The notes under the pieces: model-generated
The model's input: only the letters and a program-made list of their open reading frames with translations
Databases searched by the model: none
Told to the model about the DNA's origin: nothing
Assembly: GCA_965197585.1 (NCBI GenBank)
Contig: OZ240215.1
Span: 800,001 to 864,000, forward strand
Source: Dehalococcoidia bacterium
Lineage (GTDB): Bacteria; Chloroflexota; Dehalococcoidia; Plut-88900
Length of the DNA: 64,000 nt
Direction: 5' to 3'
Shown: positions 389 through 29,937 of the stretch, one piece after another
Layout of the letters: each line of letters opens with the position of its first letter
Numbering within the stretch: the stretch's first letter is position 1
Program-made: the position numbers and the translations under genes

Positions 389-402
389 CGAGCGCCGGGC
401 CC

Positions 403-4593: not shown

Positions 4594-4715
4594 AACCCGA
4601 TCCTCCTTCATTGACTTCCTGTAGGGGGCCTTCCGGGAGGGTTCTTGGCTCCCCTGTCACCGCTTCGCTTGCTCGCCTGCAAACACCCAACCCCGCTTCG
4701 CATCACAAAACCGGG

Positions 4716-4850: not shown

Positions 4851-4873
4851 CAACCAAATCCCTGTACACCCCA

Positions 4874-5614: not shown

Positions 5615-5626
5615 GGACTCTATGCC

Positions 5627-6616: not shown

Positions 6617-6781
6617 GCCCACTTGTTTCGATAGACGGGACTTCGACAGATACACGAGACGAACAGATAGACGAGAAGGCACGAGGAGGTCAAGAGATGT
6701 GCAGCTAGGCAAGCTAAGGCGACGTGACCCCTGGACCAGGGAGAAAGACTCCCAAACAGCAACGGAAACAGGAGAAAGCGA

Positions 6782-7075: not shown

Positions 7076-7100
7076 GCAAAGCAGAAGTGGAGGAAGAGTC

Positions 7101-9088: not shown

Positions 9089-9109
9089 TCGCGGGAAAAG
9101 GATACCGAT

Positions 9110-11362: not shown

Positions 11363-11378
11363 TCAAAGGAAGAACGCT

Positions 11379-13976
11379 ATGCGATTCAACCCGATAAAGT
11401 TATTTTCAGACAAGTCCCCTGATGTCCAGCCGGTTCTGTTGGCCATCACACCACCCCGCACCGGTGAGCGCACCCTGCTTGGGGTGGAGAACATGCTCTC
11501 CTCGCTGGCCGTACCGGAACCTTTCTCGCTGGAGCTGGCCGGAGAGGCCCACGGTGTGACCCTCCTGACCCGATGCCTCCGCGACCAGGTGGTGAGGGCT
11601 CAGGTAGCCGCCCACTATCCCCAGGCACGCATCCGGGAGGTGGTCCCCGAAGAAGACCCTCTGAGACTCCGGGATGGCGAGCAGGCCTGGGGCATGACGT
11701 TGCGGTCCTCGGGCCCCGAGTACGTGCCGCTGCGGGTGTTCAGGGACGGCGACCTGCTCGATCCCGGCTCCGACCCCCTCATTGCCCTGCTGGGTGCCCT
11801 CTCGGACCTCAACGAGGGAGAGCGGGTCGTAACCCGGCTACTGCTGCGCTCCCTGGGCCCCGAGTGGTCGCTGCACCACGCGGAGATGGCCCACGCCGCG
11901 CCCTCCGCCCGGGCCGGGCCCGCATCCCGCTCCCAAGAAGCAGGGACGTCTCAAGGGCCGGGCTGGGGGACGGCCGTCCTGGGCGTCGGGGCCCTGGCCG
12001 CCTACCAGGGTTATACCTGGGTGCAGGCCGGAGAGACATGGAAGACGGTTCTCCTGGGGCTGGGGGCTGCCGTCCTCCTGGCAGTCGGAGGCTGGGCATG
12101 GCGCCGCTGGAAGGCGTCCCGGTCCCGGGTCTTCGACCCCCTGCTCATCAGGGAGAAGGTCTCCCGCATCGCCTTCGATGCCGAGATACGCGTCGTTGCA
12201 GTTCTGCCTGAAAGCACCGGGCCGCAGCGTGCCGAGGAGCTGTTGGGGCAGGTCGTAGCCGCCTACCGCCACTACGATAACCCCGCCGGGGCCCGGTTCC
12301 GCGTGGGGAAGGCCGGGCCCACGCATCCGACCTTAGACCTCCAACCGTCGGGGCCGGGGCTGTTCGGAAGGCGAAGCGTCATGGGGGTGCGGGAGGCCGC
12401 GTGCCTCTGGCACCCGCCCGGGGAGGGGGACGAGACCCCTCTCGTGGCCCGCGCCGGGTCGAAGGTGCTGATGCCCGCGGCCCGCAGCGTCAGGGAGGGC
12501 GCCCACGTCGGAGAGACCACGGCGGGGACTCCCCGGAAGATCCATTTCCCCGGAGACCTGCTGCGGCGGCACCACCTCTACGTGGCCCGGACCCGCATGG
12601 GCAAGTCCACCCTCATGCACCACGTGGTTGCCCACAAGATGTGGGAGAAGGCCGCAGGCAGGGATACGGACGCCATAGTCGTCATTGATCCCCACGCCGA
12701 CCTGGTGAGCGGCCTGCTGGATCACGTGCCCGAGACCCTCGTCGACCGGGTGCGGCTCATAGACTTGGCGGACGAACGGGGAGCGCCCGGAATCAACCTG
12801 CTGGACACCCGGGTGTTTACCGACCGGGACCGCACCGCCGACTCGGTGGTACGCGTGGCAAAGGGCCTGTGGGAGCAGTGGGGGCCCAGGATGCAGTCGA
12901 TCCTGGAGCAGACGGTCAAGAGCCTCCACGAGGCCAACGAGCACCGGGAGTCCGGGGAGCAGTACACGATCCTCGACGGGCTGAGGATCCTCTCCGACGA
13001 CAAGTTCCGCAGCGAGGTGCTGGCCAGGGTAGACGACCCGTATCTCCTGGAGTGGTGGGCGAGGGACTTCGGCGGCTGGCGCCGGGAGTACAGGGCCGAG
13101 GCCCTGGCTCCCGTGCAGACCCGTCTCTCCTACTACGCTACCTCCAAGCGTGCGCGGGCCGTGCTTGGCCAGTCCCGGTCCACCATCGACATGCGCCGTA
13201 CGATCCATGACGGAGGCGTCCTGCTGGTCTCCACCGCCCAGGGGAGCGTGGGCAGGGACGTGGCCGCCCTGGTCGGCGCATCCCTCCTCAACCTGGTAGA
13301 CGCCGTCATCCGGGAGCAGGGGCGCCTGCCCCCGGAGAGGAGACGGGGCGCCCTCGTGGTCGTGGACGAGATGCAGTCGATGCCCGGCGTGGACTACGAG
13401 GGGATGCTGTCGGAGCTGGGCAAGTTCGGGGCCTCGTTCATCCTGGCCACCCAGAGCCTCGCCAAGCTGGACGACCTCTCCCGCACCATGCGGGACACCC
13501 TGCTGGCCAACGTGGGCTGCCTGACCGTGTTCCAGGTGGCGGGCAACGACGCAAGGCAACTGGTCTGGGAGTTGGGCCGGGACAGGGTCTCGGAGGAGGA
13601 TATCACCTCCCTGCCGGTGCACCACTGCTACGTCAGGGGCACGGTGGGCAAGGAGCGGATGCCCGCGTTCTCCATGATGGTCAGAAAGCCCGAGCCGGGA
13701 GACCCCGGGACCGGTGTGCGCATACGCTCCGAATCCGAGAGTTACGCCACCGCAGCCCGCGACATCGCTGAGAGGAACTCGGACCAGCAGGATTTGGTTG
13801 AGAAGTACCGGGGGGACCTGGGGGAGTTGAGGAACGGCGAGAACCTCCCAACGGCAGATGACGATCATGGGACTGGCCCGTCGAAGGGTGATGCCCGGCG
13901 CAAAGTGCGCACCAAGAGGGACAGGACGGACGGGGCCGTCGCACCTGAGGTGGCTGAAGAGGACGGCGGCCAATGA
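11379..13976 (+). CDS. virD4: Type IV coupling protein (VirD4/TraD-like)
   Basis: Two TMs, Walker A variant ARTRMGKS, IDPHADLV, VVVDEMQ, FILATQSL; AAGGA RBS before ATG 11379. Confidence 0.85.
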   Translation: MRFNPIKLFSDKSPDVQPVLLAITPPRTGERTLLGVENMLSSLAVPEPFSLELAGEAHGVTLLTRCLRDQVVRAQVAAHYPQARIREVVPEEDPLRLRDGEQAWGMTLRSSGPEYVPLRVFRDGDLLDPGSDPLIALLGALSDLNEGERVVTRLLLRSLGPEWSLHHAEMAHAAPSARAGPASRSQEAGTSQGPGWGTAVLGVGALAAYQGYTWVQAGETWKTVLLGLGAAVLLAVGGWAWRRWKASRSRVFDPLLIREKVSRIAFDAEIRVVAVLPESTGPQRAEELLGQVVAAYRHYDNPAGARFRVGKAGPTHPTLDLQPSGPGLFGRRSVMGVREAACLWHPPGEGDETPLVARAGSKVLMPAARSVREGAHVGETTAGTPRKIHFPGDLLRRHHLYVARTRMGKSTLMHHVVAHKMWEKAAGRDTDAIVVIDPHADLVSGLLDHVPETLVDRVRLIDLADERGAPGINLLDTRVFTDRDRTADSVVRVAKGLWEQWGPRMQSILEQTVKSLHEANEHRESGEQYTILDGLRILSDDKFRSEVLARVDDPYLLEWWARDFGGWRREYRAEALAPVQTRLSYYATSKRARAVLGQSRSTIDMRRTIHDGGVLLVSTAQGSVGRDVAALVGASLLNLVDAVIREQGRLPPERRRGALVVVDEMQSMPGVDYEGMLSELGKFGASFILATQSLAKLDDLSRTMRDTLLANVGCLTVFQVAGNDARQLVWELGRDRVSEEDITSLPVHHCYVRGTVGKERMPAFSMMVRKPEPGDPGTGVRIRSESESYATAARDIAERNSDQQDLVEKYRGDLGELRNGENLPTADDDHGTGPSKGDARRKVRTKRDRTDGAVAPEVAEEDGGQ

Positions 13977-15601
13977 GTTCCCTGGATGGTGAGCTGTTGG
14001 GGCTCCTGGCCCGGATGCCCTTTCTCGACCGGTTGGAGGCGGCCATATTCTCCGGCTGGTCCAGGGGCGCAGTCTACGGCGCCATGTCCCGGATGGAGGA
14101 CGCCGGGCTGATCTCCGCAGTCCCCCACGCCACCAGCATCACCGCCGCAACCCGCAGGTTCCACCTCACCTCCGCCGGGCTGGCCTGTCTGGCGCAACGG
14201 GAGGGAACTACAGTGGACGAATTGCTGCGGACCCGTCCCGTCCCAGCCTGGTGGCGGCGCCTCCTCCTGGAGCGCCTTGACGCCGCGGCCGTCATCTACC
14301 GGCTGGCCTCCGCCGTCGCCCAGATCGCCCACCCCGTGGGATTTAGGTGGTATCGGGCCATGCCGATGGACGCTGGACTCACTCTCCCCAGCGGCTGCAC
14401 TGTAGCCGTGGTAAGGCAGGGACATACCTCCGACAGGACGGGCTTCTCCAAACGCCTCTGGAGGCTCCGTGAGGGGCCCCGGCCTGACGGCATCCTCCTG
14501 CTGGCCCCCGACGAGACCCGGCTGCGCCACTCCCGCAGGCTGCTGGCGGGAACCCCCGCGGTCCTTGCCCTTGAGTCCGATGCAGCCGCCGCCGGAGTGG
14601 ATGACCCGGTGTGGAGGCTGCCCTCGGTAAACGCCTCAGTCGACCTCCGCACCGCCCTTGACCGCATGGGCTACGGCGGAGATCTTCCGGTTGAGCGGGC
14701 CCTTACGCGGCTGTCTCCGCCCCAGGACCTCGTTACGGAGGCCCGGGGTGGAGACGTTCCCGACTTCATGCTCCCGGCCCTGCTCAAGCCCACCGAGAAA
14801 TGCGCCCTCGATCTCCTATCCGACTGGCCCTGGATCGCCCTGGACGACCTGGCCGGGTTACTGGGCCTGTCCCGCACCCGCACCTACCGCCTCACCTCCA
14901 CCCTGGAGACCTTCGGACTGGTGACCCGGGTCCCGGCGGGAGGGCGCCGCCTGACCCTCACGGACCGGGGGCTGGCCGTCCTGGCCCGCAGGGACCGCAC
15001 GTCCGTGGGCTGGGCAAGGAAGCGGTGGAGTTCCGCCCCCAGGGATGCCGACGACTGGCGCAGCGTATCGGGGAGGCGGAGCCGCCAGCTCCTGCGCAAC
15101 ATGGAGCACACTGGGGCCGTTCACGGGTTCATGGCGGCGCTGGCCCGCCAGGCACGCGCCCTCGGCTGGGAAACCCTCCAGTTGGACCCGCCCCGCAGGG
15201 CATCCCGCTACTTCCAGCACTTTGGCGGGATGCGCTCCATCCAACCCGACGCCTTCGGCATACTGCGACGGAAGGGAGGGATACGGCCCTTCTTCCTGGA
15301 GTGGGAGCGCAGGGCGGTGCGTCCGAGTACCATGGCAGATCGCCTGGCCCCCTACCTCCGCTACTACTCTTCACACCGGCCCGTAGACGACCACGGCGCA
15401 AGGCCCGTCGTGCTGGTGGTACTCCACGAAGACCTGGCAGCCATCCACTTCCTGCGGGTGGCGTCCGGGGAGATGGAACGCACAAGGACCATCCTTCCCC
15501 TGCTGGTATCCCACGGGAGCCTGCTCAAGCGGGAGGAGCCACTGGGCCGGGCATGGCTCACCCCAGGCGGCGAGACGACGAGAATGATACCAGCGGGCTG
15601 A
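13973..15601 (+). CDS. Replication-relaxation (Replic_Relax, PD-(D/E)XK) family relaxase with internal duplication
   Basis: wHTH + HT motif + IQPDAFG...FFLEWER; ATGA coupled to coupling protein. Confidence 0.8.
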   Translation: MSSLDGELLGLLARMPFLDRLEAAIFSGWSRGAVYGAMSRMEDAGLISAVPHATSITAATRRFHLTSAGLACLAQREGTTVDELLRTRPVPAWWRRLLLERLDAAAVIYRLASAVAQIAHPVGFRWYRAMPMDAGLTLPSGCTVAVVRQGHTSDRTGFSKRLWRLREGPRPDGILLLAPDETRLRHSRRLLAGTPAVLALESDAAAAGVDDPVWRLPSVNASVDLRTALDRMGYGGDLPVERALTRLSPPQDLVTEARGGDVPDFMLPALLKPTEKCALDLLSDWPWIALDDLAGLLGLSRTRTYRLTSTLETFGLVTRVPAGGRRLTLTDRGLAVLARRDRTSVGWARKRWSSAPRDADDWRSVSGRRSRQLLRNMEHTGAVHGFMAALARQARALGWETLQLDPPRRASRYFQHFGGMRSIQPDAFGILRRKGGIRPFFLEWERRAVRPSTMADRLAPYLRYYSSHRPVDDHGARPVVLVVLHEDLAAIHFLRVASGEMERTRTILPLLVSHGSLLKREEPLGRAWLTPGGETTRMIPAG

Positions 15602-15632
15602 GCTCCCGCACCAATCAAGGAGAACGAAAGAC

Positions 15633-16388
15633 ATGAGGCTGTACTACATCGCTGATTCCGAAGGGTCTGACCACTACGTACGATCAGCCTTGGGCGTTGA
15701 TGCCGAGCGTTGGAACGACCTATACCGACGGGTGTTTGACTGGCGTATGTGCCTGCAGGAACGATGCACCGTCCCGGTCGACCGGGAACTCAACGCCGGA
15801 GACCTGCTGACGGGCAGGGGGATGCTGGCACGCTGCTGCGGGGCAAACCGTAACCTGACACCGGAACATGGGGCTCAAATCTTCCTGGACGGACTGCGAG
15901 TCATCGAGACCGCCGCCGGTACCGTGGGAGGGGTTGAGGTTATCAATGTTTGTCTCTGGAAGCAGGATGTTCAGCGGTATGAACAGGTCAGCCTCGACCG
16001 GCTCCTGAACCGCATCAATGCGTCGGTTGCAGCAACGGGACGCCTTGCCCTCCTCATCTTTGACGAGGACGTGGCGGAAGCGCAAGCACAACTCTACCAC
16101 AGGCTCAGGAGCCGCAAACCCGTGCCAAGCAGGTACGAGGCCTGGGAGGACGGCGAGAGGACGAAGGACATCCCCATAGACAGGATCATCGGCGGCCCAG
16201 CCTTCCGAAGCTCCCACTCCGACCACCTGCTACAGATGGCTGACCTCATCGGCCACGCCCTCCTTAAGCCGGAGGAGCCGTCGCCCAGGGTGGTGCGTCT
16301 GGGCATCGACCGGGCCTTCGGGATCCTCGGCCGCGCCCTCAACCGCAGGGCGTCCAGGCGATACCTCCAGGGCGTCGTCAGGAGATGA
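15633..16388 (+). CDS. DUF3800-like (RNase H fold) protein
   Basis: LIFDE and SHSDHLLQMADLIGHAL motifs; N-terminal acidic motif atypical (YIADSEG). Confidence 0.7.
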   Translation: MRLYYIADSEGSDHYVRSALGVDAERWNDLYRRVFDWRMCLQERCTVPVDRELNAGDLLTGRGMLARCCGANRNLTPEHGAQIFLDGLRVIETAAGTVGGVEVINVCLWKQDVQRYEQVSLDRLLNRINASVAATGRLALLIFDEDVAEAQAQLYHRLRSRKPVPSRYEAWEDGERTKDIPIDRIIGGPAFRSSHSDHLLQMADLIGHALLKPEEPSPRVVRLGIDRAFGILGRALNRRASRRYLQGVVRR

Positions 16389-16488
16389 GTGGACAGGGCA
16401 TTTGGCCCTGCGTACAGGCTCCGTAGTCGTGACGGTCGATGCTCGACAAAGGTAGAATGATGGCCAGTACCATGAGTAGAGAGAACTT

Positions 16489-19400
16489 GTGGTAGAAACC
16501 TCGGGGCATCTAAGTGACAATTTGCTCCGTTGGGTTTCGGAAGCAAAGAGAGATGTCAACCAAATAGAAGAGTGGAAATCAAAAGTGATTAGTAAAGATG
16601 AGATTAAAGACCGGGTACTGACTGAGAATACCGCACAGGGAATTCTCAACCACCTGAGAGAACTCGAATCTAATCGGGCACGTATGCAAAGGCGATGGAT
16701 ATGGGAGCTCTTGCAGAACGCCCGTGATGCTGCCGCCGACGATGATACTCACCTCGTCGCCTCCGTTGAGCTTGGCCGTGGTGAGCTTGTTTTTCAGCAC
16801 AACGGTCGCGGATTTACTATGGAGGAAGTAGCTCACCTCATCTATCACGGCTCCACCAAATTAGAGGATGAGAAGGCCATCGGGCAATACGGTAGCGGCT
16901 TTCTGACAACTCACCTGCTATCACCCGAGATCGATGTCTCCGGGCAACTCAGCGATGAGAGACATTTCAACTTTCGCTTGAGGCGTGAAATCGTATCCAC
17001 CAAGGCACTCAGTGACTCTATGGATAGAGCATGGGATGAGTTTGATGCATCTACCGAAGCCTTAGCAGATAGTTTCACGACCCGGTTCCGCTACCCCGTG
17101 GCTGAAGAATCGGTCGGCGCTGTAGAAGAAGGAATCGAAACACTGAAGCAATGCGCCCCGTTCGTGGTCGTTTTCAATCGTCAATTTCGGCGCATCAACA
17201 TCAAGTCCCTGGAAGAGACTACGACTTTCGAAGTGGTCGAACGCGTCCCCTTAGAAGCGGGATTGCAGACAGTCACAGTCGGAGTAAGCGAACATGGGTC
17301 TTTGAGAGAACGAAAATACCTTCTGGCGGAAGGCGAGCTAGCATCTGTGACCATTCCAATGGCGCCGATTGATAATGGGGCAATCTGCTTACCTCTTGAA
17401 GGTATACCGAGACTCTTCCTAGGATTTCCCCTGGTGGGGACTGAAACTTTCAGCTTTCCAGCCGTCACAAACAGCTTTGCATTCACTCCAACCGAAAACA
17501 GAGATGGCGTCTTTCTCGGACAGAGCGATGACGAGGCAAACCACACGAATCAAGCCGTCATGGAAGAAGCCTGCGACTTGCACGTCAAGTTGGTTGAATT
17601 CGTGGCCAAATCTCGTTGGGCAAACACCCATACGCTGGCGGCCATCCCTCCAATCAGTGAGCAGACTTGGCTAAGTAGAGACTGGATTCATGACCGACTC
17701 GGACACCTCGTGACTCAAATTCGCCAAACCCTCGCCGTTATCAGTGCAGATGCCGCCTTCTCTCCCAAAGACTCTATTGTACCGCTCGCGGGTGAAGTCA
17801 TGGCCACGGAAGCTCTTTGGGACCTGCTATGCGAGATCAAGACTTTCCGACCAAAGTTACCAGCAAGGAATGAGGCCGATGGATGGCGCGCGGCGGTCGA
17901 GAGCTGGGCGGCCATTACAGGTCGCGACACGACATCATTCGGGGAGGGATATGACGGCAGCAAATTGGTGTCCTTTCTTGAAGAGGCGACCAAAGGTGAT
18001 GACACCGACTCTGGCACGTTTGAAGGACTCGAGAATGTACTTCAACACGAGGTTGATGCAGTCGAATGGCTTGACCGGCTTTATCGATTCCTTAAGGACG
18101 AGGGCTTTGATAACTTGATTCGCGAGAGTCACGTTGTTCTTGACCAGGCTGGCTATCTCGATAAGCTCTCCAACCTGTATCGTGACAACGACATAGGCGA
18201 GGAGTTGAAGGCTATCGGGGATGATGTCCTCGATATGGGGATTCGAGGTCGCCTTCGTGACACTCGCCTTACTTCTCTTGCCGATGAAATAGGCAAAGGA
18301 GAACTTGGCAATAAGGATGTGATCCAAGAGATAACCGACAACCTTGAAGAGCTTTGCAGTGAAGGAACTCTCGGGGACAAATTCACTCAGGCTAGCCCGC
18401 GTCTCCTAGCCTGGCTCGTTACTAACAAGCAATGGAATTATCTGACGGGTTTTCCCGCATTCTCAACTAGGCCCGAAGACGGAAGCTGTGAGGTGCTATG
18501 GCTAGGTCAAAAGGGAGGCGAAGACGTTGAGGTGCCCCTAGCCCCAATTAAAGCATGGACGGAGGACCTTCAGCAGTACGCAGACCTCTTCCCGTGGCGA
18601 TACATCATGGCGGAAGAGTTTTTTGCTCTACTGCCTGAGGCCGATGTCTGGCCCATGCTGAGCGGGCAAGGGTATGTGAGAACGGATGTGGTGGTCAGCG
18701 GCAACAAATCCCGTGGAGACTTCCTTCCAGATGAACCATTAGCAGACGGCGAACACAAGACCGTTGACGCCGTTGCTCTGACTGACCTGATCCTCTTTAC
18801 TAGGGACAGAGTAGGGGTCATGGCACGCGTTCGCGACAGTCAAGCCCGCGCTCGACTCTTCTGGCGATTCTTAACAGAATGGTTGATCAAACGCGATCCG
18901 AAAGGCTTGGAGCTTAAGACAGCAGACTGTGAATGTGGAGCCAGTCACAGGTACTATTCGGCGATGTGGCTGGTGCCAGTCGTCAGGAACAGTTGGGTTC
19001 CCCAAGGAAATGATATACGCGACCGCGCTACGGCGCAGTCCCTTGCCAAGCTTCTTAGAGGCAGTGGGTGGACCCCCAATGCTCTAGGTGATACCTCTGC
19101 TGCTCTCAAACTTTTGGAAGCAATTCGAGTGACCCGCTTTGACTTAATGAGGCATTTCGTCGTCAGCGACGATGCATCCCGATCTGCCTTGGACGACACA
19201 ATGACCAATATTCTGGTTTCGACTGGTGGAGATCTCAGCCATGTCCGCGACTTTGTGGAAGATATGAAGACGGACAAGGACCTGCCTCAGCATCTCGCAG
19301 ACCGCCGGGAACGGAGGCGGGTCGTGCATGAGAATCAACGATTGGGAGGTCTCGTGGAAGACTTGGTGAAGGAGGGGTTGGAAGACGAGGGGTTCACTGT

Positions 19401-19860
19401 CAAGCGTACTGGCATTGGCTCCGACTTCGAGATTGAGTATGACATGCTCGAAGAAGATGAAGAGATAGGTATCGAGTTATCACGGAATGGCCGAACCTGG
19501 CTGGTTGAAGTCAAAGCCACCCGAGAACACAGAGTTCGGATGACAGCGAGGCAGGCTGAAACTGCCGTGAAGAGAGGGGATGGATTCCTGCTCTGTGTGG
19601 TTCCTGTGGGGCATAGCGGATCCAAGCTGCAGAAAGACGACGTACGCACCAAAATGCGGTTCGTGCAAAACATCGGCCCCCGCGTAGAGCCGCTATGCGC
19701 AGAGCTGGATGCACTCAACGATCTGCGCGACGACGCCACAACCCCCAGTGACAGTGACATTCAACTGGAAATCGAGGCTGGCACGGCGCGCATACGTGTA
19801 GATAACGCCGCTTGGCAGAACGGAATCTGTCTGACAGACCTCCCAACTCAGCTCAAGTGA
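16489..19860 (+). CDS. Sacsin-type GHKL ATPase with C-terminal DUF3883/PD-(D/E)XK nuclease domain
   Basis: WELLQNARDA, FQHNGRGF, IGQYGSGF GHKL motifs; C-terminal GIGSDFEI...LVEVKAT. Confidence 0.85.
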   Translation: MVETSGHLSDNLLRWVSEAKRDVNQIEEWKSKVISKDEIKDRVLTENTAQGILNHLRELESNRARMQRRWIWELLQNARDAAADDDTHLVASVELGRGELVFQHNGRGFTMEEVAHLIYHGSTKLEDEKAIGQYGSGFLTTHLLSPEIDVSGQLSDERHFNFRLRREIVSTKALSDSMDRAWDEFDASTEALADSFTTRFRYPVAEESVGAVEEGIETLKQCAPFVVVFNRQFRRINIKSLEETTTFEVVERVPLEAGLQTVTVGVSEHGSLRERKYLLAEGELASVTIPMAPIDNGAICLPLEGIPRLFLGFPLVGTETFSFPAVTNSFAFTPTENRDGVFLGQSDDEANHTNQAVMEEACDLHVKLVEFVAKSRWANTHTLAAIPPISEQTWLSRDWIHDRLGHLVTQIRQTLAVISADAAFSPKDSIVPLAGEVMATEALWDLLCEIKTFRPKLPARNEADGWRAAVESWAAITGRDTTSFGEGYDGSKLVSFLEEATKGDDTDSGTFEGLENVLQHEVDAVEWLDRLYRFLKDEGFDNLIRESHVVLDQAGYLDKLSNLYRDNDIGEELKAIGDDVLDMGIRGRLRDTRLTSLADEIGKGELGNKDVIQEITDNLEELCSEGTLGDKFTQASPRLLAWLVTNKQWNYLTGFPAFSTRPEDGSCEVLWLGQKGGEDVEVPLAPIKAWTEDLQQYADLFPWRYIMAEEFFALLPEADVWPMLSGQGYVRTDVVVSGNKSRGDFLPDEPLADGEHKTVDAVALTDLILFTRDRVGVMARVRDSQARARLFWRFLTEWLIKRDPKGLELKTADCECGASHRYYSAMWLVPVVRNSWVPQGNDIRDRATAQSLAKLLRGSGWTPNALGDTSAALKLLEAIRVTRFDLMRHFVVSDDASRSALDDTMTNILVSTGGDLSHVRDFVEDMKTDKDLPQHLADRRERRRVVHENQRLGGLVEDLVKEGLEDEGFTVKRTGIGSDFEIEYDMLEEDEEIGIELSRNGRTWLVEVKATREHRVRMTARQAETAVKRGDGFLLCVVPVGHSGSKLQKDDVRTKMRFVQNIGPRVEPLCAELDALNDLRDDATTPSDSDIQLEIEAGTARIRVDNAAWQNGICLTDLPTQLK

Positions 19861-19917
19861 CCCAACTCAGCAACGATATTGGGTGTTGGCAAACGCCCGA
19901 GACAAAGGATGATGGCG

Positions 19918-21114
19918 TCAGGCGGCGATGCGAGTTAACCACGATGCCGCCCGGGCCAGCTCATCGTGGGGCATGAACCCCTCGCGATGCCACCATCCGA
20001 AAGCTCGACTACCTGGCATTAGCAGATCAATCTCCATTGCCTTTCTTCCTCCGCGTCCATGGTTGTTTGAAATTCCTGCGTGAGGAGCGGTCGTTCGCCG
20101 TACGAGGAGTTGCCTATTAGGCCACACTTCTTTCATTGCGGCGACACACATCTCTGCTGTACTTCGCCGCTGGTCACTCCTAATAAGAATCGCAGCACCT
20201 TTCTTCAGATGCTTCTTGGATTCCTGAAAAACCTGAGTGACTAAATCCTGGTAATCCTTCTGGTTTTCGAAGCGTGCTGACTTCGTCCAATTCTTACGCA
20301 ATGGGTATCCAAGCATCCACAGCCTGATCCAATGGTCATTCCAATAGTCAGTCACACCACAATATGGTGGTGACGTAACCAATAGGGCGGCATCAGCGTT
20401 GTGCTGCTGTGGAAGTTCCTGCCGTGAATCACCCAAAAGCACCGTCCCAGAAGCCTGAGCCGGGACTCCATGCTGATAGCGGCGCCTGATTTTGTCTTCC
20501 AGCATTGCTACCGGGTTAACGTCTGGCGGTCGAAGGAATCCTTTCTCTGTCCACCATTTCACGGCATACGTGGGCGAATAAGCAATGGTAGGGGACATGA
20601 CATTCGATAAACCGGCCCCTTGTTTGTCCTGCATGTGCAAGGTTATGAATGCCATGAGAGTGCGATCTACGATCGAGTCCCGCCAGTCGAGTTCACGACG
20701 CGCTGCTTTCAATAGCGCTCGCACTGCAGGGGCCCAAGCCATAGTCTCGAACCGGCTGCGGCTTCGCCTGTCACTGGGACGGCACGCCTTGGCAACTTCG
20801 TCAAGTCGAGCTGTAACGTGCGTGTCTTTAGGAGCGGGATGGAGTTTGGCCGCAGCGAATAACCACGCAATGGGGTTGATATCGATTCCCAGTGCATTTC
20901 TGCCCAGCACCGTGGCGGAGAAGGGTGCATTACCTCGCCCACAGAAGGGGTCGAGAACTGTTTCCTCCGGCTTGGTCAGGTTGATCACTACGTCGTGGAT
21001 GAAGGACTGCGGGAACATGGCATAGTAGCGTCCGAATCCGTACCATCGTCCGGCGGCTGTGCTACGGCTCCAAACACTTTTGTCCGACAATTCCGTCTGT
21101 GCTTGTTTGATCAT
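19918..21114 (-). CDS. DNA amino-methyltransferase (N4-cytosine type, alpha motif order)
   Basis: YYAMFP, motif I VLDPFCGRG, motif IV VTSPPY; ATGA overlap with nurA stop. Confidence 0.85.
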   Translation of the reverse strand: MIKQAQTELSDKSVWSRSTAAGRWYGFGRYYAMFPQSFIHDVVINLTKPEETVLDPFCGRGNAPFSATVLGRNALGIDINPIAWLFAAAKLHPAPKDTHVTARLDEVAKACRPSDRRSRSRFETMAWAPAVRALLKAARRELDWRDSIVDRTLMAFITLHMQDKQGAGLSNVMSPTIAYSPTYAVKWWTEKGFLRPPDVNPVAMLEDKIRRRYQHGVPAQASGTVLLGDSRQELPQQHNADAALLVTSPPYCGVTDYWNDHWIRLWMLGYPLRKNWTKSARFENQKDYQDLVTQVFQESKKHLKKGAAILIRSDQRRSTAEMCVAAMKEVWPNRQLLVRRTTAPHAGISNNHGRGGRKAMEIDLLMPGSRAFGWWHREGFMPHDELARAASWLTRIAA

Positions 21115-22424
21115 GTCACTAGGCTGTGGATCAGATCGGTGCCGGCCTTTAGTGGTATGGATGCCCAACGGTGAGCCCGACGCAATGCAAGAAATTGGTC
21201 ACTCCCCACGCCCAATGGTCCAGCTGTGCTGATAGCGTCTCCTAACGCACGCGGGTCGGACCGGTCTGTAAGCGGTGGTTCTGCTTCCGGCTGCGCGATG
21301 TTGAGAACCAGCCGCTGTCCTCTTGCAGTCTTCAGCACCAAGGGCCGCCCGTAGTGCGTAAGTTCACCCCAAGGCTTAGGGTAATCGGAATGTCCAGCAA
21401 TTATGTTTTCTCTAATGTACTGGTTGCTGGGCAACCAGACATGGTCAGGGGGGATACGTCTATTTGGTTCAGGTGCTCTGTCGAGTTCCTCTGCATGCTG
21501 GACAAATGGCCCACTCTTAACTCCGGACATGACCAGCAGCTGTGCGTCCGGACGAAAGTCCTGTAGCCTGTCTTGCACGCTCTTCAGTTCTCTACGAATT
21601 GCCTGAGCTAGTACGGCTATGGTACCAAACGCAGCGAGTTGGCCGTCCATCACGAATGCCGTGTTGGCCAAGGCGGTCAAGCCCTCATCGGATTGGACCA
21701 AGTAGCGGAGACTGTTGACCAAAGCGAGCATTTCTAGGGTTTGCATGACCCGGATGTGACACTCCACAGCTGATTGGTTTTCAATGAACTGCTCGTGAAC
21801 TCTGAGCGCATCGGTAGTAACGATTGTCGTTTCACAAGTGGGGCAAGTGTCATCAATGTTTGGTTTAGGTATCGATAGCTGAGTGCCATCACAATCGGGG
21901 TTTGGACATTGGCGAATCCTGTGATCGGCCCCCAGTACGTGATAAAGACTCTCAGCGAAAGTTTCACCCCCCAATGAGACTTTGTTTAATGTGTCGTTGA
22001 AGGAGCGACGAAACCATTCTCGTGGACCTATTCCATCAACCGTTTTGGCATTGGTCCCCGGTAGCAAAGCGCCTAAGCTACGTCCATCTTCGGTCTCCCT
22101 GAGTTCTCTGGGACTGACTGCACCGCTGACAGGTAGCTTTACCAGCGACGACAGCTTGCTGAGCTTGATGACCACTACCCCGAGGGATACGATTCCAGCT
22201 TGCGTATCCGGAAGTCTTCCTGGGAAGTTGTCATAGACCTGCGACCCGTCTATGGCGACCAAATGAGTCCTGGCATTCCCGGATGGACTCGGCCGGAAAG
22301 GTGGCAGGGCCAACACAGTTTCCTGGCTAGGCGGTTGTAACTGAGCACGGAATTCGGCGAACTCCGAGCTGTCGGCAATAGCCTGTATTGCGGCCAGACC
22401 TGCTCTCTCATCGGGGTAAGGCAT
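21111..22424 (-). CDS. nurA: NurA-family 5'-3' nuclease with Cys4 zinc-ribbon insertion
   Basis: LVAIDGS and FVMDGQL catalytic motifs, C-terminal AH; CPNPDC...CPTC insertion; adjacent to HerA. Confidence 0.8.
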   Translation of the reverse strand: MPYPDERAGLAAIQAIADSSEFAEFRAQLQPPSQETVLALPPFRPSPSGNARTHLVAIDGSQVYDNFPGRLPDTQAGIVSLGVVVIKLSKLSSLVKLPVSGAVSPRELRETEDGRSLGALLPGTNAKTVDGIGPREWFRRSFNDTLNKVSLGGETFAESLYHVLGADHRIRQCPNPDCDGTQLSIPKPNIDDTCPTCETTIVTTDALRVHEQFIENQSAVECHIRVMQTLEMLALVNSLRYLVQSDEGLTALANTAFVMDGQLAAFGTIAVLAQAIRRELKSVQDRLQDFRPDAQLLVMSGVKSGPFVQHAEELDRAPEPNRRIPPDHVWLPSNQYIRENIIAGHSDYPKPWGELTHYGRPLVLKTARGQRLVLNIAQPEAEPPLTDRSDPRALGDAISTAGPLGVGSDQFLALRRAHRWASIPLKAGTDLIHSLVT

Positions 22425-22450
22425 GTTGAACCCTGTAGTCAGCTATGAGT

Positions 22451-24634
22451 CTACGGTTGTCCGCTATCGGACTGCGCCGGTGGCGCGGAGTCATCTGGAA
22501 TCTGGAACTTGTCCAGTTGGACTGGCACGGTATACGCTTGGGATAGCGTGCGGATCCGCACGAATCCGCGCTCACTGACCTTCCCAATTTGCTCGATAAA
22601 GTCAGAGAAGTCCATATATCCCGCTACTACGCGGCGCTCAGCCTCTGAGTTAAGATAGGACAGTACCCAGTTGTCTGTTTCACTCAGGATTTCCGGCATC
22701 ACGGAACTCGGCGCCTGTGTGGCCAACACCATACCAATATTCAGCTTGCTTCCCTCCTTAGCGGCTCTCGCCCACACAGATGTCAGGTTATCGCGGGCAT
22801 TGACCCGTGGCAGGAGATTGTGAGCCTCCTCTATATAGACAATTATGTGCCCCTTCGTGGCCTGTGATTCGTCGGGAGGGGCGGTGGGGTCGTATTGCGC
22901 TAGGATGGATCGGAAGCGCTCCTGCTGCGACCTGAATATCCGCCACATGACCCGCTCTGCAGCGGCTTGGTTCTGTTCTGACTCCCCGGCTGATTGATCA
23001 ATGATGACCAGTTTGCCTTCGCGCAAGTCGTTCACAACGGCCTCTGCGAAGTCATTGGTGGTGTTGGGATTGTGTTGTTCTTGGGCAACTTGGAAGAACC
23101 TGGGACCGTTGCGTGACTCAAAGATGCGAAGGACGGCTCGAAACCTGGGATCGGCCCATGACTCATGGCTCGAGCTGTTGCTAATGTAGTTCTGCTCGAA
23201 CGTGGCGAAATAGCTTTTGCCATCGTCTATGAAACGAGAAAGTGCTGTGAAGACAGTTACAAGCTGGTCCCAAGTGATTCTAAATTGATTCTGTCTAGCT
23301 GATTCTAAGATGACCGCAGCTTGATGGTAGTCTGTTCGATGGTCGCTGTTGGCGTTGTTGTTCGCTCTCATGGCATTGATGAGGTCTTGCGAGAATAGAG
23401 AGTTCGGTCCAGGTCCTTGTATGGACGGCTGCCAACTCGGTGGCTGCAGCCCAGCAGCGATCAGTGCGGTTCTGTAGGCTAGAATCGCACGGAAATACCG
23501 GGTCTGTGCTCCCATATCTCCGGCACCGCTGGGCTCGACAGCGAGGTCCACATCCCGGAATGCTCGCATGTATTGGGACGGTGCAGTCGCCATGATGCCT
23601 TTGATTATCTCTTTGCCAGCCAACAACTGATCCAGGGCCTGCTCCACTCGTATGGTGTCCTGCTGTGTTTGCCAGGGCCTTGGAATCGGGTCTCCAAAGA
23701 AGTTCAGTTTCATGATTTTACGACCTCGGTCCCAGGGTACGGATATCAGTCCATAAGTCGCCACCTCAGCCTGTCGCGACAAGCCGATGGTCTCGTGGAC
23801 TCGGTGTAGCCCCTTGCCGTCTTGGTAGTTGTCTTGGGCATATTCACCGCTCAGATCAAAGATAATCTGGCCTATCCGATGTTCGGGATTATCTTGGCGT
23901 AACTTATAGATGCACTCAGCTACAATCTTTAGACCGTTGGATTTCCCAGAGCGAGACATACCGAAGTAAACGGTGCGCCTTTTCATGATGTCAGTGGGGT
24001 TGATTTGGAAGGCAACCTTGGTGCTATGCTCGGGTTCAGCGGCTGCAAATCGCGTACGCCCTATCCTAGTAGCCTTCTTGGCAATAGGTATGTCATTTGT
24101 GCGATGCTGATGATTTACGATCAAGTCCAGAGTGGCAGCATCTGGTTTCCACACCATCAATTGGTTGACGGAGTAGTAGTTGTCTATGTCCTCTGCATAG
24201 CGGTACTTGCTATCTTCCCATATGAAGGTGCCCAACACCGAACATTCCAGTCCGTGCAAGGATATCTTGTCCCTCACCCAGTCAGGGAGCCGATCAGCCC
24301 AGGGGCCTTGGTTTCCCGAGTCCTCAATGCTCTCTTGTCTTGTCTGGTCGTTCGCAGCTGTTGCAGGAAGCCGTGCTTCCTTTTGAATGCGAAGCAGAAT
24401 GAACGATTCGTCACCGTCGGGCTTGGCAGCTAAGAGAAAAGCATTCTTTGGTAGTCCACCCGCTTGCTCACGGTCGTAATCGTATACGGCCACTATGGCA
24501 CTGCTGTAGGAGATTGTGTAAACCGCACCCACCTTGAGAACCCGTTCACGGAACGGTCTGTTATCTAGTTGACCAGCACTTTGTATCAGACTGTCTATTA
24601 CTGTGTTGGGAGAGTCTTGGCTGTTCTCTTGCAT
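22451..24634 (-). CDS. herA: HerA/FtsK-like ATPase (DUF87)
   Basis: N-terminal HAS-barrel-like region, Walker A FGMSRSGKS, IFDLSGEY, YIEEAHN, KEGSK, LATQ. Confidence 0.85.
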   Translation of the reverse strand: MQENSQDSPNTVIDSLIQSAGQLDNRPFRERVLKVGAVYTISYSSAIVAVYDYDREQAGGLPKNAFLLAAKPDGDESFILLRIQKEARLPATAANDQTRQESIEDSGNQGPWADRLPDWVRDKISLHGLECSVLGTFIWEDSKYRYAEDIDNYYSVNQLMVWKPDAATLDLIVNHQHRTNDIPIAKKATRIGRTRFAAAEPEHSTKVAFQINPTDIMKRRTVYFGMSRSGKSNGLKIVAECIYKLRQDNPEHRIGQIIFDLSGEYAQDNYQDGKGLHRVHETIGLSRQAEVATYGLISVPWDRGRKIMKLNFFGDPIPRPWQTQQDTIRVEQALDQLLAGKEIIKGIMATAPSQYMRAFRDVDLAVEPSGAGDMGAQTRYFRAILAYRTALIAAGLQPPSWQPSIQGPGPNSLFSQDLINAMRANNNANSDHRTDYHQAAVILESARQNQFRITWDQLVTVFTALSRFIDDGKSYFATFEQNYISNSSSHESWADPRFRAVLRIFESRNGPRFFQVAQEQHNPNTTNDFAEAVVNDLREGKLVIIDQSAGESEQNQAAAERVMWRIFRSQQERFRSILAQYDPTAPPDESQATKGHIIVYIEEAHNLLPRVNARDNLTSVWARAAKEGSKLNIGMVLATQAPSSVMPEILSETDNWVLSYLNSEAERRVVAGYMDFSDFIEQIGKVSERGFVRIRTLSQAYTVPVQLDKFQIPDDSAPPAQSDSGQP

Positions 24635-24701
24635 ACAAAGTTCTCCTACGACAAACGTGTGACAACGAGGGAGTCGGTAAGGGTTAGTTCCACCATGGGC
24701 G

Positions 24702-24710
24702 ATTATAACA
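24702..24710 (-). promoter_or_regulatory. Extended -10 promoter for herA operon
   Basis: TGTTATAAT on minus strand ~70 nt upstream of herA ATG. Confidence 0.5.
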
Positions 24711-25366
24711 AAGTCGGTGATTCTTCAGCCAATGCAGGGCACCTCAATAGAGGATACGCCGTTGCTACAACGGTTGTCATAATAGCCTGCGGTATTGACA
24801 TGTGACCCCAAGGTGCCTGCATAATCGGACAAGCGCTACGTTTGCGCCTCGTTCAATCCCTCTGAGCACAAGGTTTACTTTCGCTCTCTACCCACATGCA
24901 TGATGATTAGCCCATTGCATTACTTATCTGCTAGTGTGACTCAGTTCTCTCCCGGATGGGCCTGTGTGCAAAATCGACAAGATGTGAGTCCATAGCTACC
25001 TCGGACGGCCTAGCTAGCCTGGAACAGCCCGACGGCATCCCGACGGCCTACTTGGCATCACTCGAAGTTTTGTTATCTCATACTCTTGCTTTCAGCAACA
25101 CCTAGATATCAATATTCCTCAAAAGGTCTGAGTGGTTGGGTAGGAAGATAATGCTTTCGGGAAGATTTTGAGAGTCATCCCTGATGTCTAATGAGAAACG
25201 GATTTGGTACCGCATTCAATAGAGGCGCGTAAAGATGCTCAGCGGCTCGCAGCGACCGTCGGCAATATAGCTCGGTCAAGCATCGCACCTAAGTAGTCCT
25301 CGCCAGCCATCAACTGCAGAATTGAGTACTGCACATTTCCACCCAGACCACCAATGGCTAATTGTT

Positions 25367-25681
25367 TCATCGGGAAAATGCCTCCAGGCCCACTCCATCG
25401 GGCACGTCCCGGTCGGGACACATCAAGATCCCGTCCCGGAGTCCCATGCTCTCGGCCAAGGTCAAAAGATAGAATAGACGGGCGGAACCTGGTACGACGC
25501 CCTTGCATCGCCACTCCCTGAGCCGGTAAGGGCTGACACCCAGTAGCCGTGCCATCGACCCCCAGGACATCCGGCTGGCCTCTTTGAAGTGCGCGAGCCG
25601 TTCAGGGAAGTCCTCAGGAAAGTCAACCTTGACGGGCCTGTGAACCCTCTGCTGCACCCCCAAGACGTTAGTTCTTCCCAT
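25367..25681 (-). CDS. XRE-like HTH protein
   Basis: FPEDFPERLAHFKEASRMSWGSMARLLGVSPYRLREWR. Confidence 0.75.
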   Translation of the reverse strand: MGRTNVLGVQQRVHRPVKVDFPEDFPERLAHFKEASRMSWGSMARLLGVSPYRLREWRCKGVVPGSARLFYLLTLAESMGLRDGILMCPDRDVPDGVGLEAFSR

Positions 25682-26039
25682 TCTTAGCATCAGGGATCGA
25701 TGCAACGCGGGGCATGAACGCCTCCCTGAAATCTGCCCCTTCGGCCAGGGCTGACAACACATCCGGCTTTGGAAGGAGGATGTCGACCCCCAGCAGTATG
25801 TGGACGCCTCCCGGGAACCGGGCCGCCAGGGTAAGGAGGGCAAACAGCGTGTCTCCGCAGGGCTTGGTGCCGTGACGCCAGCGGCGGACCTGCCGGGGGT
25901 CCACACCCATGCAGTAGGCCATGCCATCCCAGGTGAGACCACTGACCCTCTTGAAGTATTCCAGGCGCTCGACGAAGTCATCCGGCAGGAAGGGCAGGCA
26001 ATACAGGGTTTCAAGGGGAAGTAGGGAGCAGCGGCTCAC
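25668..26039 (-). CDS. XRE-like HTH protein (paralogue of downstream gene)
   Basis: LPDDFVERLEYFKRVSGLTWDGMAYCMGVDPRQVRRWR; GTGA overlap with upstream stop. Confidence 0.75.
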   Translation of the reverse strand: MSRCSLLPLETLYCLPFLPDDFVERLEYFKRVSGLTWDGMAYCMGVDPRQVRRWRHGTKPCGDTLFALLTLAARFPGGVHILLGVDILLPKPDVLSALAEGADFREAFMPRVASIPDAKNGKN

Positions 26040-26275
26040 TGGACAAGCTCCAAGATGAACAGGTCGTCGAAACTGTCGATCCCAAGGACATCCTGAAGGC
26101 GCTTTCGCATCTCGGCCGACGGGCAGCGGGTGCCGCTCATCAGCTGGGAGAGATATCCGGAGGTGATGCCAACCGTCCGCGCCAGTTCGTTCTGGCTCAT
26201 GTTCAGCTGGTCGAGACGGTCCCACACGCCGCGTTGCTTGAGCCTTACCCTCGATGCAGGGCGTCGTCCTTTCAT
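26036..26275 (-). CDS. XRE-family transcriptional regulator (Cro-like)
   Basis: MSQNELARTVGITSGYLSQLMSGTRCPS HTH. Confidence 0.85.
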   Translation of the reverse strand: MKGRRPASRVRLKQRGVWDRLDQLNMSQNELARTVGITSGYLSQLMSGTRCPSAEMRKRLQDVLGIDSFDDLFILELVQ

Positions 26276-26472
26276 TTCCCATCCTCCTTCTCGCCGTTGC
26301 CCTCCTCTACCGGGGCTGCGCGAACCCTACCTGCGGCATCCCCGGGATACAGTTCGGGGTTGGACATGTAGTGGCGGGCTATGATGCGTGCCAGGATTCT
26401 TAGGCTTTGCAGCCACATCTCCTCCTGTTCCCTAGTGAGTCGGACCTTGCTCATTGCGATTTCATCTCCCAC
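26272..26472 (-). CDS. Hypothetical protein
   Basis: 66-aa ORF (LRILARIIARHY), ATGA-coupled to downstream HTH gene. Confidence 0.65.
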   Translation of the reverse strand: MGDEIAMSKVRLTREQEEMWLQSLRILARIIARHYMSNPELYPGDAAGRVRAAPVEEGNGEKEDGK

Positions 26473-26675: not shown

Positions 26676-27119
26676 ATGAGTGAAAGGGCACAGTTGAATC
26701 GGGGGGCTTCTATGAACGGGGAAATCGACCGCCGCGACGAGGACATCGGCCAGATGTTGAAGAGACTGAGAGCAGATACCAGCCTGCGGGGCGTCCAGCG
26801 CCTCACCGGCATCTCCAACGCCTACCTCTCCCAGATAGAGAAGGGCCTCCGCCAGCCTGGGCCGAAGGTCCTCAGGAGGCTGGCTGCCCTCTACGGGGTG
26901 GGCGTGCAGGAGCTGTTTAAGAGGGCCGGGTACCTGGAAGCGGAGAAAGAGGAGCCCAAGGCCAACGAGGCCACGGAGGTTGAGAGGGCCTACCAGTACG
27001 TCCTCTCCGACCCCGTCTTTCGGGTTGGCACCCGTCCCAGGGGGCCTCTCTCCGTCGAGTCCAAGCGATTCATAGTCGAGTTGTACGAACGATACACGGG
27101 AAAGAGGCTTCTCCAATGA
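26676..27119 (+). CDS. XRE-family repressor (ImmR/CI-like)
   Basis: SLRGVQRLTGISNAYLSQIEKGLRQPG HTH; divergent from Cro-like gene; coupled to ImmA-like gene. Confidence 0.85.
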   Translation: MSERAQLNRGASMNGEIDRRDEDIGQMLKRLRADTSLRGVQRLTGISNAYLSQIEKGLRQPGPKVLRRLAALYGVGVQELFKRAGYLEAEKEEPKANEATEVERAYQYVLSDPVFRVGTRPRGPLSVESKRFIVELYERYTGKRLLQ

Positions 27120-28075
27120 ACAGCACCATGCTTGACGACTTCTGCAATTCCCTCAAGGCTGGCCGGACTCCCCCGGAAAGGCTCATGCCTGGGGAGGTGG
27201 CCCGGAGGTTCGTGGGCCACTTTGGTTTCTCTCCCTTTCCACGCATGGGAGAGATGGTCCGGTTGCTGAGGGGAGCGGGAATAGAGACGGCACCGGACGC
27301 CGACCTCGACAAAGGACTCAGAGGTATGCACCTGGGCACCAGCAATGGAACCTACGTCATCCGATACGACGCCTCCGAGACCGATGGGACGCAGGAGCAC
27401 ACGGTGTTCCACGAGACCTACGAGATCATCCGGGAGCGCCTAACCGACCTCCATCCCGAAGTACAACGACCCCAGGGCCAGCCTCTATGCCGCCAGGCTG
27501 ACCGTTTCGCCGCCGCAGCTTTGATGCAGCCCGGGTTCTTCGCCCTCTTCGCCGAGACCACGGGTCTGGACGTGGTGGCCCTACAGCGCACCTATGGACG
27601 TGCCTACTCCTCCCTGACAATCAGGCTGGCCGAGGTGATGCGGAATCAGCCCCTCTTGGCAGTGCTGTACGAGCGGCAAGGCCACCGTAACCCGCAAGAA
27701 TGGGCTGAACGCCCTTCGCCGGAGGAGTTCACGGCCACCGTCGTGGCGAGGACACCCGGGTTCAGGTTGAGAACAGTCAAGAGGCCCCTATCGACTCTCC
27801 GAGGGATGCTGCCCCGTCGTGGCTATGCCCCCGCTCAGTACTCGGTGGCGGAACGGGTCATTCTCACGGGCGAACCCGTACACGTGGAACGGGTAACCGG
27901 CTACGACCTGTGGAATGCCGACGACATCACTGTAGCCGCCAGGCTGGTGAAATGGCATGGCCGCCTGGCCAAGATCGCCCTCGTAGCCGTGCCCTACAGG
28001 GACCGCAAGGTCTTGGGCCCGCAGCTCGGCCGTGTCTCCTTCGAGCACATCTCACATGCACACCAGGTTATCTAG
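27116..28075 (+). CDS. ImmA/IrrE-family metallopeptidase-like anti-repressor with atypical metal ligands
   Basis: QEHTVFHETYE and CRQADRFAAAALMQP align to HExxH / ExxAnxFA motifs; HTH-like and GAF-like C-terminal part. Confidence 0.75.
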   Translation: MNSTMLDDFCNSLKAGRTPPERLMPGEVARRFVGHFGFSPFPRMGEMVRLLRGAGIETAPDADLDKGLRGMHLGTSNGTYVIRYDASETDGTQEHTVFHETYEIIRERLTDLHPEVQRPQGQPLCRQADRFAAAALMQPGFFALFAETTGLDVVALQRTYGRAYSSLTIRLAEVMRNQPLLAVLYERQGHRNPQEWAERPSPEEFTATVVARTPGFRLRTVKRPLSTLRGMLPRRGYAPAQYSVAERVILTGEPVHVERVTGYDLWNADDITVAARLVKWHGRLAKIALVAVPYRDRKVLGPQLGRVSFEHISHAHQVI

Positions 28076-29845: not shown

Positions 29846-29937
29846 TGGCGGAGAGGATGGGATTCGAACCCACGAGAGAGCTTTCACCCCCTACGCGATT
29901 TCCAGTCGCGCCTGTTCGGCCACTCCAGCACCTCTCC
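29846..29937 (-). tRNA. tRNA-Ser(GGA), ICE integration site
   Basis: GGAGAGG acceptor stem, CGCGA-CTGGAAA-TCGCG anticodon arm, long variable arm, GGTTCGAATCC T-loop, encoded CCA. Confidence 0.95.

Follow-up and report, generated by a model that had tools for sequence, protein, structure and literature searches.

What is a block of about 8.2 kb, poor in guanine plus cytosine (G+C) and holding four large genes, doing inside an integrative and conjugative element (ICE) of a Dehalococcoidia bacterium, and do its genes form one system or two? The block occupies positions 16489-24710 of a stretch of 64,000 nucleotides (nt) of contig OZ240215.1 (positions 800,001 to 864,000), referred to below as the window; the loci compared with it carry L-numbers. 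An initial annotation had read it as a candidate new defence system made up of a HerA-NurA-N4-cytosine (N4C) methyltransferase operon and a convergent sacsin-GHKL/DUF3883 nuclease. Our comparisons lead to a different partition: the locus combines Tiamat, a defence gene that was already known, with an uncharacterised trio of herA, nurA and methylase genes, and what is new is the link between the two. With a probability of roughly 0.55, we read the locus as two modules, a TdpAB-like trio of restriction-modification type and Tiamat, which are often inherited as one block and neither of which needs the other.

Products of the four genes

Four large open reading frames (ORFs) make up the block in the ORF list of the window, three on the minus strand converging on one on the plus strand. 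Judged by its sequence, the plus-strand product (16489-19860, 1123 amino acids (aa)) is full-length Tiamat (TmtA), a named single-gene defence. It matches the PADLOC profile PDLC03967 end to end (E = 9.8e-176, residues 37-1122 on profile positions 9-1056 of 1063), gives Pfam matches to NOV_C and HATPase_c and an NCBIfam match to the sacsin ATP-binding domain (2.2e-18), and has a GHKL ATPase at its N terminus, repeats in its centre and a PD-(D/E)xK (NOV_C/DUF3883) nuclease at its C terminus. Both the ATPase residues (E73/N77/D80 and G132-G135-G137) and the nuclease residues (D979/E981 and E1007-V1008-K1009) are kept, being invariant in the same six homologs, down to 29% identity. The sacsin-GHKL/DUF3883 nuclease that had been offered as a new component is this protein, and part of the locus matches a described system because the large ORF is a named stand-alone defence; the trio beside it is uncharacterised.

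Tiamat is a defence that consists of one gene (Millman et al. 2022, cited in this way by preprint 10.64898/2026.09.30.754977). Passages of that preprint report stand-alone defence, ATP hydrolysis, duplex nicking and cleavage of single-stranded DNA, name helicases of superfamilies 1 and 2 (SF1/SF2), nucleases and methylases among the neighbours of Tiamat, and propose that a partner helicase acts after the Tiamat nick (10.64898/2026.09.30.754977). The terms 'HerA', 'NurA', 'DUF87' and 'FtsK' occur 0 times in its main text; its figures and supplements may list such a type. Unlike the single gene that has been described, the window copy travels with a HerA-NurA-methylase cassette.

The first gene of the minus-strand trio (22451-24634) encodes a 727-aa HerA/FtsK-type ATPase with a HerA fold. 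PADLOC HerA models match it at about 1e-14 and Pfam DUF87 at 1.3e-4, just under the cut-off (22.6 against 23.2 bits), and both Walker A (G225-S232, with G225 and G230-K231-S232) and Walker B (E602-E603, with A604-H605) are invariant in 17 sequences. The best sequence match in the PDB is TdpA (8wet_A, 4.7e-14). When an AlphaFold2 model of the protein (predicted local distance difference test score (pLDDT) 76.1) was searched with Foldseek, ranks 1-6 were all TdpA chains (E 2.2e-23 to 1.4e-21), archaeal HerA came next (2.7e-18), then the HerAs associated with SIR2 and DUF4297 (about 1e-17 to 1e-16). The model contains a helical insert of some 200 aa, at about residues 320-540, predicted with high pLDDT.

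The second gene (21111-22424, minus strand) encodes a 437-aa NurA-type nuclease with an RNase H-like NurA fold. The protein has no match above cut-off in Pfam (PF09376 included), PADLOC or NCBIfam, and PF09376 is carried by four of 120 listed relatives, all at 59-60% identity. A profile of the family run against PDB sequences returned zinc-finger noise only (E > 0.2), and the NurA assignment therefore rests on motifs and fold. According to a passage of PMC13748450, NurA motifs I and II are DG and motif III is LxxAH; the corresponding VAIDG, FVMDG and LRRAH of the window protein are invariant in 37 sequences (D59-G60, D260-G261, H418), as is an inserted four-cysteine zinc ribbon (C173/C178/C194/C197). 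The AlphaFold2 model (pLDDT 75.9) has as its top Foldseek matches the NurA of T. kodakarensis (9x1m_G, 1.5e-6) and TdpB (8wfd_G, 1.7e-6), the latter giving the best template modelling scores (0.47/0.56); the NurAs of Deinococcus, Pyrococcus and Sulfolobus follow at lower ranks, so that the top matches, at 1.5e-6 to 5e-4, are all NurA or TdpB chains. The HerA-NurA complex of T. kodakarensis is reported, in the part of PMC12977600 that describes it, to degrade both strands from any end. A predicted complex of the window NurA with the methylase scored 0.00, in a run without controls, and speaks neither for nor against a contact.

The third gene encodes the methylase; its ORF spans 19918-21168 on the minus strand and, read from the ATG at 21114 (19918-21114), gives 398 aa. 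The product matches PF01555 (8.7e-14) and the PADLOC model MTase_II (2.5e-22), with motif I (DPFCGRGN) in its N-terminal part and TSPPY about 190 aa downstream. Among 15 relatives, down to 39% identity, there is no change in D55-P56, G59-R60-G61 or T247-S248-P249-P250-Y251. TSPPY is characteristic of N4-cytosine enzymes, and the nearest solved sequences, at weak E-values, include both CcrM and N4C enzymes. By profile match and motifs, the protein is a PF01555 DNA methyltransferase whose mark is possibly N4-methylcytosine (m4C). The methyltransferase half of the initial call stands; its N4C half, which draws on the TSPPY motif, is not established.

A conserved herA-nurA-methylase cassette

The herA stop and the nurA start are separated by 26 nt (22425-22450), and the methylase ATG (21114-21112) overlaps the nurA TGA (21113-21111) as ATGA. 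Upstream, an AGGAG (24647-24643, minus strand) lies ahead of the herA ATG at 24634, and 67 nt upstream of that ATG is an extended -10-like element, TGTTATAAT (24710-24702, minus strand), at whose aligned place L001 reads TGGTACAAT. A consensus scan for promoters and terminators does not list TGTTATAAT because it has no -35 match, and the promoter-like sites that the scan does list (6 against 6.1 expected) are in no excess over shuffled sequence; the element is real as sequence and putative as a promoter. The four ORFs, the 26-nt gap, the overlap and the extended -10, as initially annotated, are all present. The convergent stop codons of TmtA and the methylase gene leave a 57-nt spacer (19861-19917), in which the same scan found no terminator-like site.

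A pattern scan that took one genome per species gave 13 related loci, 12 of them labelled as Dehalococcoidia or Chloroflexi metagenome-assembled genomes (MAGs), and with the window these make up 14 trio loci. The three genes stand in the same order in 13 of the 13, with identities to the window of 63-93% for NurA and 62-84% for the methylase. When the flanking ORFs were clustered, HerA, NurA and the methylase were the only families common to all flanks. In four loci that hold the trio only (L002-L004 and L008), homology to the window ends at the ends of the herA and methylase genes. In all 13 loci the cassette is poorer in G+C than its flanks, the one exception being the TmtA-bearing left flank of L013. 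The trio is likewise found in every metagenome contig with enough flank, with L029/L030, L032/L034 and L033 as three more distinct versions and one further copy cut by a contig end, and close protein relatives among the matches listed are labelled as belonging to an actinobacterial sponge symbiont and a gammaproteobacterial MAG. We conclude that herA, nurA and the methylase gene are one conserved, translationally coupled and self-contained unit, and the operon that had been proposed is borne out.

The cassette decays often: three of the 13 trios are damaged, HerA being truncated in L007 and split in L009, and NurA split in L013. The insertions measure about 1.2 kb in the herA of L009 (8446-9636) and about 1 kb in the nurA of L013 (9032-10001), and L007 has kept only the last 189 codons of herA, upstream of 9405.

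A sample of 401 genomes of the phylum contained no close relatives of the trio, NurA matches being found there only at 23-32% identity. In the seven other genomes of the sample with such a distant NurA, HerA adjoins it in seven of seven and a DNA methylase in seven of seven. The methylase belongs to PF01555 and lies downstream in L022 and L023, belongs to PF01555 and lies upstream in L025, L026 and L027, and is a D12-class enzyme lying upstream in L024 and L028. Non-homologous methylases are swapped around one motor-nuclease pair, a pattern that is the signature of a modification-linked restriction system. In L024 (6691-13616) the D12-class methylase, HerA and NurA are followed by an overlapping gene for an 878-aa UvrD-type helicase, in what looks like a four-gene variant of the cassette.

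A collection of plasmids gave four weak NurA matches, of which three were inspected (one haloarchaeal and two of three cyanobacterial). The Halorarius halobius plasmid (NZ_CP101164.1, 120027-124803; L048) encodes DUF87, a NurA-like hypothetical protein and a DNA methyltransferase in the order seen in the window; the Tolypothrix and Calothrix plasmids (L049 and L050) have an XRE-DUF87-NurA series without a methylase. In the Tolypothrix plasmid this series is followed by a large exonuclease-domain protein, a different kind of HerA-NurA neighbourhood.

HerA and NurA form the end-processing machine of archaea and Deinococcus, and the window genes belong to the same two families as the archaeal herA-mre11-rad50-nurA operon and the Deinococcus NurA-HerA pair, with the NurA and HerA Walker motifs kept. 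This family role favours a resection pair for the repair of double-strand breaks, lying by chance near an orphan methylase and a defence gene, and so does L027 (6669-15066), whose distant methylase-HerA-NurA set is convergent with genes for a Rad50-like (878 aa) and an Mre11-like (376 aa, Metallophos) protein and in which repair-type and methylase-type neighbourhoods are mixed. The window cassette, however, is mobile and foreign in composition, it always comes with a methylase, and copies of it are repeatedly disrupted by insertions. As the initial annotation had noted, mre11 and rad50 are absent, no such ORFs occurring in the block or its flanks and no Pfam match to them in the block. The same genome also has a canonical NurA (PF09376, 8.7e-23) and HerA (DUF87, 1.5e-28, with HAS barrel) elsewhere (G000:C1:1691400-1695200; L047, 6897-10702), without a methylase and among SelB, HemN-like and YchF genes, which is likely the housekeeping pair of the organism. 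We consider a chance repair pair very improbable.

TdpA and TdpB are the best structural matches of the window HerA and NurA, and TdpABC, like the window trio, combines genes for a hexameric motor of HerA type, a nuclease of NurA type and one enzyme that modifies DNA. The two differ in several respects: the modifier of the window is a PF01555 base methyltransferase and that of Tdp the phosphorothioation enzyme TdpC, the window HerA is about 140 aa longer, its NurA has the zinc-ribbon insert, no more than 12-16% of residues are identical in the structural alignments, and TdpABC is a system of thermophiles whereas the window-type hosts are mesophilic MAGs. Since its third gene is a PF01555 methyltransferase and not TdpC, the cassette falls outside TdpABC, although its way of working may be similar. 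TdpAB, as An et al. reportedly found in 2025, reads the backbone modification through its motor and is held off self DNA. The SIR2-HerA and DUF4297-HerA systems (the 'Her' of Gao, and Nezha) likewise combine a HerA-type motor of similar fold with an effector, but they have no methylase, NurA or self-marking, and their effectors are NADases or Cap4-like nucleases.

Three further groups of systems were considered for the block and set aside. With respect to classical type I, II and III restriction-modification, methyltransferase motifs are present, but PADLOC and Pfam gave no restriction-enzyme match and the partners are HerA and NurA. MADS (mad1-mad8) gave weak matches only, to mad8 (HerA, 3.6e-10) and mad2 (methylase, 1.1e-5), with no other mad genes in the block. 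BREX-related capture and Dnd-type HerA systems have no matching components in the block, and 'NurA' occurs 0 times in the papers that describe them.

Tiamat beside the cassette

In the window, L005, L006 and L013, no more than 10 kb separates TmtA from the trio, and L001 retains a remnant, the last 50 or so codons, directly after the methylase gene (5 of 14 loci in all). When the 13 other trio genomes were searched whole, every TmtA match (three full-length, one remnant) was beside the trio, and TmtA was absent from nine of the 13. The background is far lower, with TmtA homologs in 3 of the 400 other genomes of the phylum sample. Genome G358 has a 66%-identical TmtA among pyruvate dehydrogenase and lipoate genes and no trio. 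The link is facultative, not obligate, but clearly non-random and far above background. The idea of an obligate set of four does not survive these counts, and the co-occurrence check proposed for the four families gives a mixed outcome, the link of herA-nurA with the methylase being very strong and that with Tiamat facultative.

Two arrangements can be distinguished. In type A, represented by the window, L005 and the L001 remnant, TmtA lies downstream and converges on the methylase gene; in type B (L006 and L013) it diverges upstream of herA. Type B TmtA is 45-48% identical to that of the window, and type B trios are 72-80% identical to the window trio. The two arrangements hold separate TmtA lineages (45-48% against 66-72% identity), and each falls within its own clade of the methylase tree. 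Tiamat and the trio were thus brought together at least twice, after which each block was passed on as a whole. Nucleotide identity is uniform over all four genes within each type (blastn: 80.6, 81.3 and 81.9% between L006 and L013; 73.6 and 73.7% between the window and L005), and between the window and L001 homology begins at the TG of the -10 element (24710, its outer edge) and ends 139 nt inside TmtA. Each arrangement is found in more than one genomic context: L006 lies in a related ICE and occupies the slot used in the window, with both modules flipped, and L005, L013 and L001 lie outside the ICE family of the window. The pairing has been lost repeatedly as well; the trios of L009 and L013 are 95% identical, yet L009 has no TmtA.

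These observations bear on the reading closest to the initial annotation, one integrated system in which the methylase would mark self, Tiamat would initiate on unmarked DNA and HerA-NurA would degrade processively from the nick or break. The confinement of TmtA to the neighbourhood of the trio in the 13 other trio genomes, the two arrangements with distinct TmtA lineages, each with one methylase clade and more than one context, and the uniform identity within each type of block are all in its favour, as are, in the passages of the Tiamat preprint cited above, the proposal of a nick followed by a partner helicase and the methylase and nuclease neighbours (10.64898/2026.09.30.754977). However, the trio is kept without TmtA in most of the genomes that have it, even between near relatives such as L009 and L013, and TmtA stands alone among housekeeping genes in G358. 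In L005 the two modules are 3.8 kb apart with a CrtC-like gene between them, and TmtA was not found in the seven distant methylase-HerA-NurA loci or in the metagenome loci. The window TmtA fits the Tiamat profile from end to end, with no extra docking domain, at most two independent pairing events are shown, and the slot that houses the block in both ICE cases is one where defence cargo accumulates. On balance we regard the integrated system as a doubtful reading, one we hold considerably less probable than two modules. We would say the same of its most explicit form, a four-component machine in which Tiamat would be a methylation-sensitive initiating nickase that opens entry sites for a Tdp-like HerA-NurA shredder. 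If that form is true, molecular partners would be defined for the first time for Tiamat and, by implication, for NO VEIN and sacsin, its relatives in eukaryotes, and the Tdp systems would gain a methylation-based branch.

If the trio and Tiamat are instead two modules, the trio is probably a Tdp-like restriction system, so far uncharacterised, that works by methylation. Its methylase (TSPPY, possibly m4C) would mark host DNA, and the HerA ring motor and NurA nuclease would load on unmarked DNA, translocate along it and shred it. Control would run from the mark to the degrading pair, with the methylase itself, the zinc ribbon of NurA and the helical insert of HerA as candidates for reading the mark. 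The modification-linked logic of the initial annotation, to mark self and degrade foreign DNA, is retained here as the best reading. The comparisons establish what the genes are, their folds, the conservation of their catalytic residues, synteny, mobility and co-inheritance; defence, self-marking, the direction of control and any cooperation with Tiamat are inferred. Tiamat would defend independently, and any cooperation, for example if HerA-NurA entered at nicks made by Tiamat, would add a second layer that is optional. We hold such cooperation to be a live possibility, at about one chance in four, the data fitting equally well two defences that hitch-hike together. Should the trio work as proposed, HerA-NurA, long seen as a repair machine, would be the restriction arm of a widespread modification-linked immune family in which the self-mark is either phosphorothioate (Tdp) or base methylation (the cassette). 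The link to Tiamat would also provide a concrete test of the proposal that a nick is followed by a partner motor, given natural versions with and without Tiamat and relatives in which either module is broken.

Several points weigh against this two-module, Tdp-like reading. The PADLOC matches of HerA span only its C-terminal 90 residues, and no PADLOC model matches the NurA protein. The counts over 13 loci are not independent, since nearly all of the close loci belong to Dehalococcoidia MAGs that are related to one another. Sensing of a base methyl group may also work differently from the sensing of a backbone mark by TdpAB. The uniform co-divergence of Tiamat and the trio fits a tighter functional link better than it fits two independent modules. 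Finally, the tdtA operon of the Thermus element ICEth1, similar in gene content, is reported in the relevant passages of PMC5365140 and PMC7767461 to serve DNA donation, not defence, with minor effects of its methylase.

The cargo slot of the ICE

The low G+C content of the block (52.9% for TmtA and 53.6% for the trio, against 66.6% on the conjugation side of the element, window positions 1-16400, and 59.0% in the chromosome past it, 30000-64000) and the genes around it agree with its initial description as ICE cargo of about 8 kb. The conjugation genes include PrgI-like, VirB4/TraC-like and coupling proteins and, next to the slot, a Replic_Relax relaxase (13973-15601, plus strand, 1.3e-10) and a conserved 251-aa backbone ORF (15633-16388, plus strand); the last two adjoin the slot in L006 and L051 as well. 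On the other side follow two overlapping repeat-rich ORFs of 215 and 204 aa without a family match (25367-26282, minus strand), then the backbone genes for a helix-turn-helix (HTH) protein (26676-27119), an IrrE-like peptidase (27116-28075) and a tyrosine integrase (28490-29686), and a tRNA-Ser (29846-29937) that forms the integration end; this order recurs in L006, L051 and L052. The repeat-rich region 25367-26282 is a repeat-containing gene of the ICE backbone, because its relatives in L006 and L052 match it as several tandem pieces. A search of window positions 1-29000 for an att repeat of the tRNA-Ser end gave a 14-nt chance match only, and the far end of the ICE was not located.

Genome G000, to which the window belongs, holds three copies of this ICE family, the other two relaxases being 68% and 59% identical to that of the window. 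In one of them (L052, G000:C1:376250-381700) the slot is about 0.9 kb long and empty. In the other (L051, G000:C1:2655210-2665500) it holds a 5.2-kb set comprising a PF01555 methylase (421 aa), a 350-aa ORF, a BrxC/D-like P-loop ATPase (390 aa) and a 256-aa ORF, which may be another modification-linked defence. The slot is a variable cargo hotspot of the ICE family, and the 8.2-kb block is horizontally acquired cargo in it, the ICE being integrated at tRNA-Ser. One ICE family appears to swap its defence cargo through a single slot.

In the parts of the literature covered by our search, the trio is not described as a defence system, and the nearest studied gene set is the tdtA operon of ICEth1 in Thermus thermophilus HB27, which encodes a 1106-aa type IIG restriction-methylation enzyme, a NurA-like protein, the HerA/FtsK-type TdtA and a 410-aa PF01555 methylase (sections of PMC5365140 and PMC7767461). 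According to the same sections, the element is integrated at a tRNA gene, and transjugation depends on the nuclease, on NurA and on TdtA (PMC5365140, PMC7767461). Compared by gene content as described, the two loci share a nuclease of about 1100 aa, a NurA-like protein, a HerA/FtsK ATPase, a PF01555 methylase of about 400 aa and a tRNA-associated element. As these four kinds of gene also occur together on the window ICE at tRNA-Ser, the block could be a module for DNA donation or capture like this 'DNA secretion system', in which the large nuclease would cut donor DNA, NurA and the HerA/FtsK motor would process and export it, and the methylase would be accessory. The gene order differs, however, the Thermus genes running nuclease, nurA, tdtA and methylase in one operon whereas the window Tiamat converges on the operon, and the large nuclease here is Tiamat, not a type IIG enzyme. 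This donation reading is further weakened because the window ICE has type IV secretion genes, a coupling protein and a relaxase of its own, and because most trio loci lie outside the ICE family, among housekeeping genes; nor do the other copies of the ICE carry the block. A role in donation thus strikes us as improbable, if less so than a chance repair pair.

Between the edge of the cassette and the ICE backbone lie some 650 nt of AT-rich sequence (24711-25366, about 50% G+C), in which a 91-aa ORF is the only one; neither L001 nor L006 has this stretch in common with the window. The block itself was seen at 100% identity in assembled contigs of sequencing runs X1 and X3. In both runs, the summed contig depth over the coupling-protein region (12000-13800) is 100-800 times that over 16800-26400, which suggests that relatives of the ICE backbone are abundant in the community, with the block present at the depth of a single organism.

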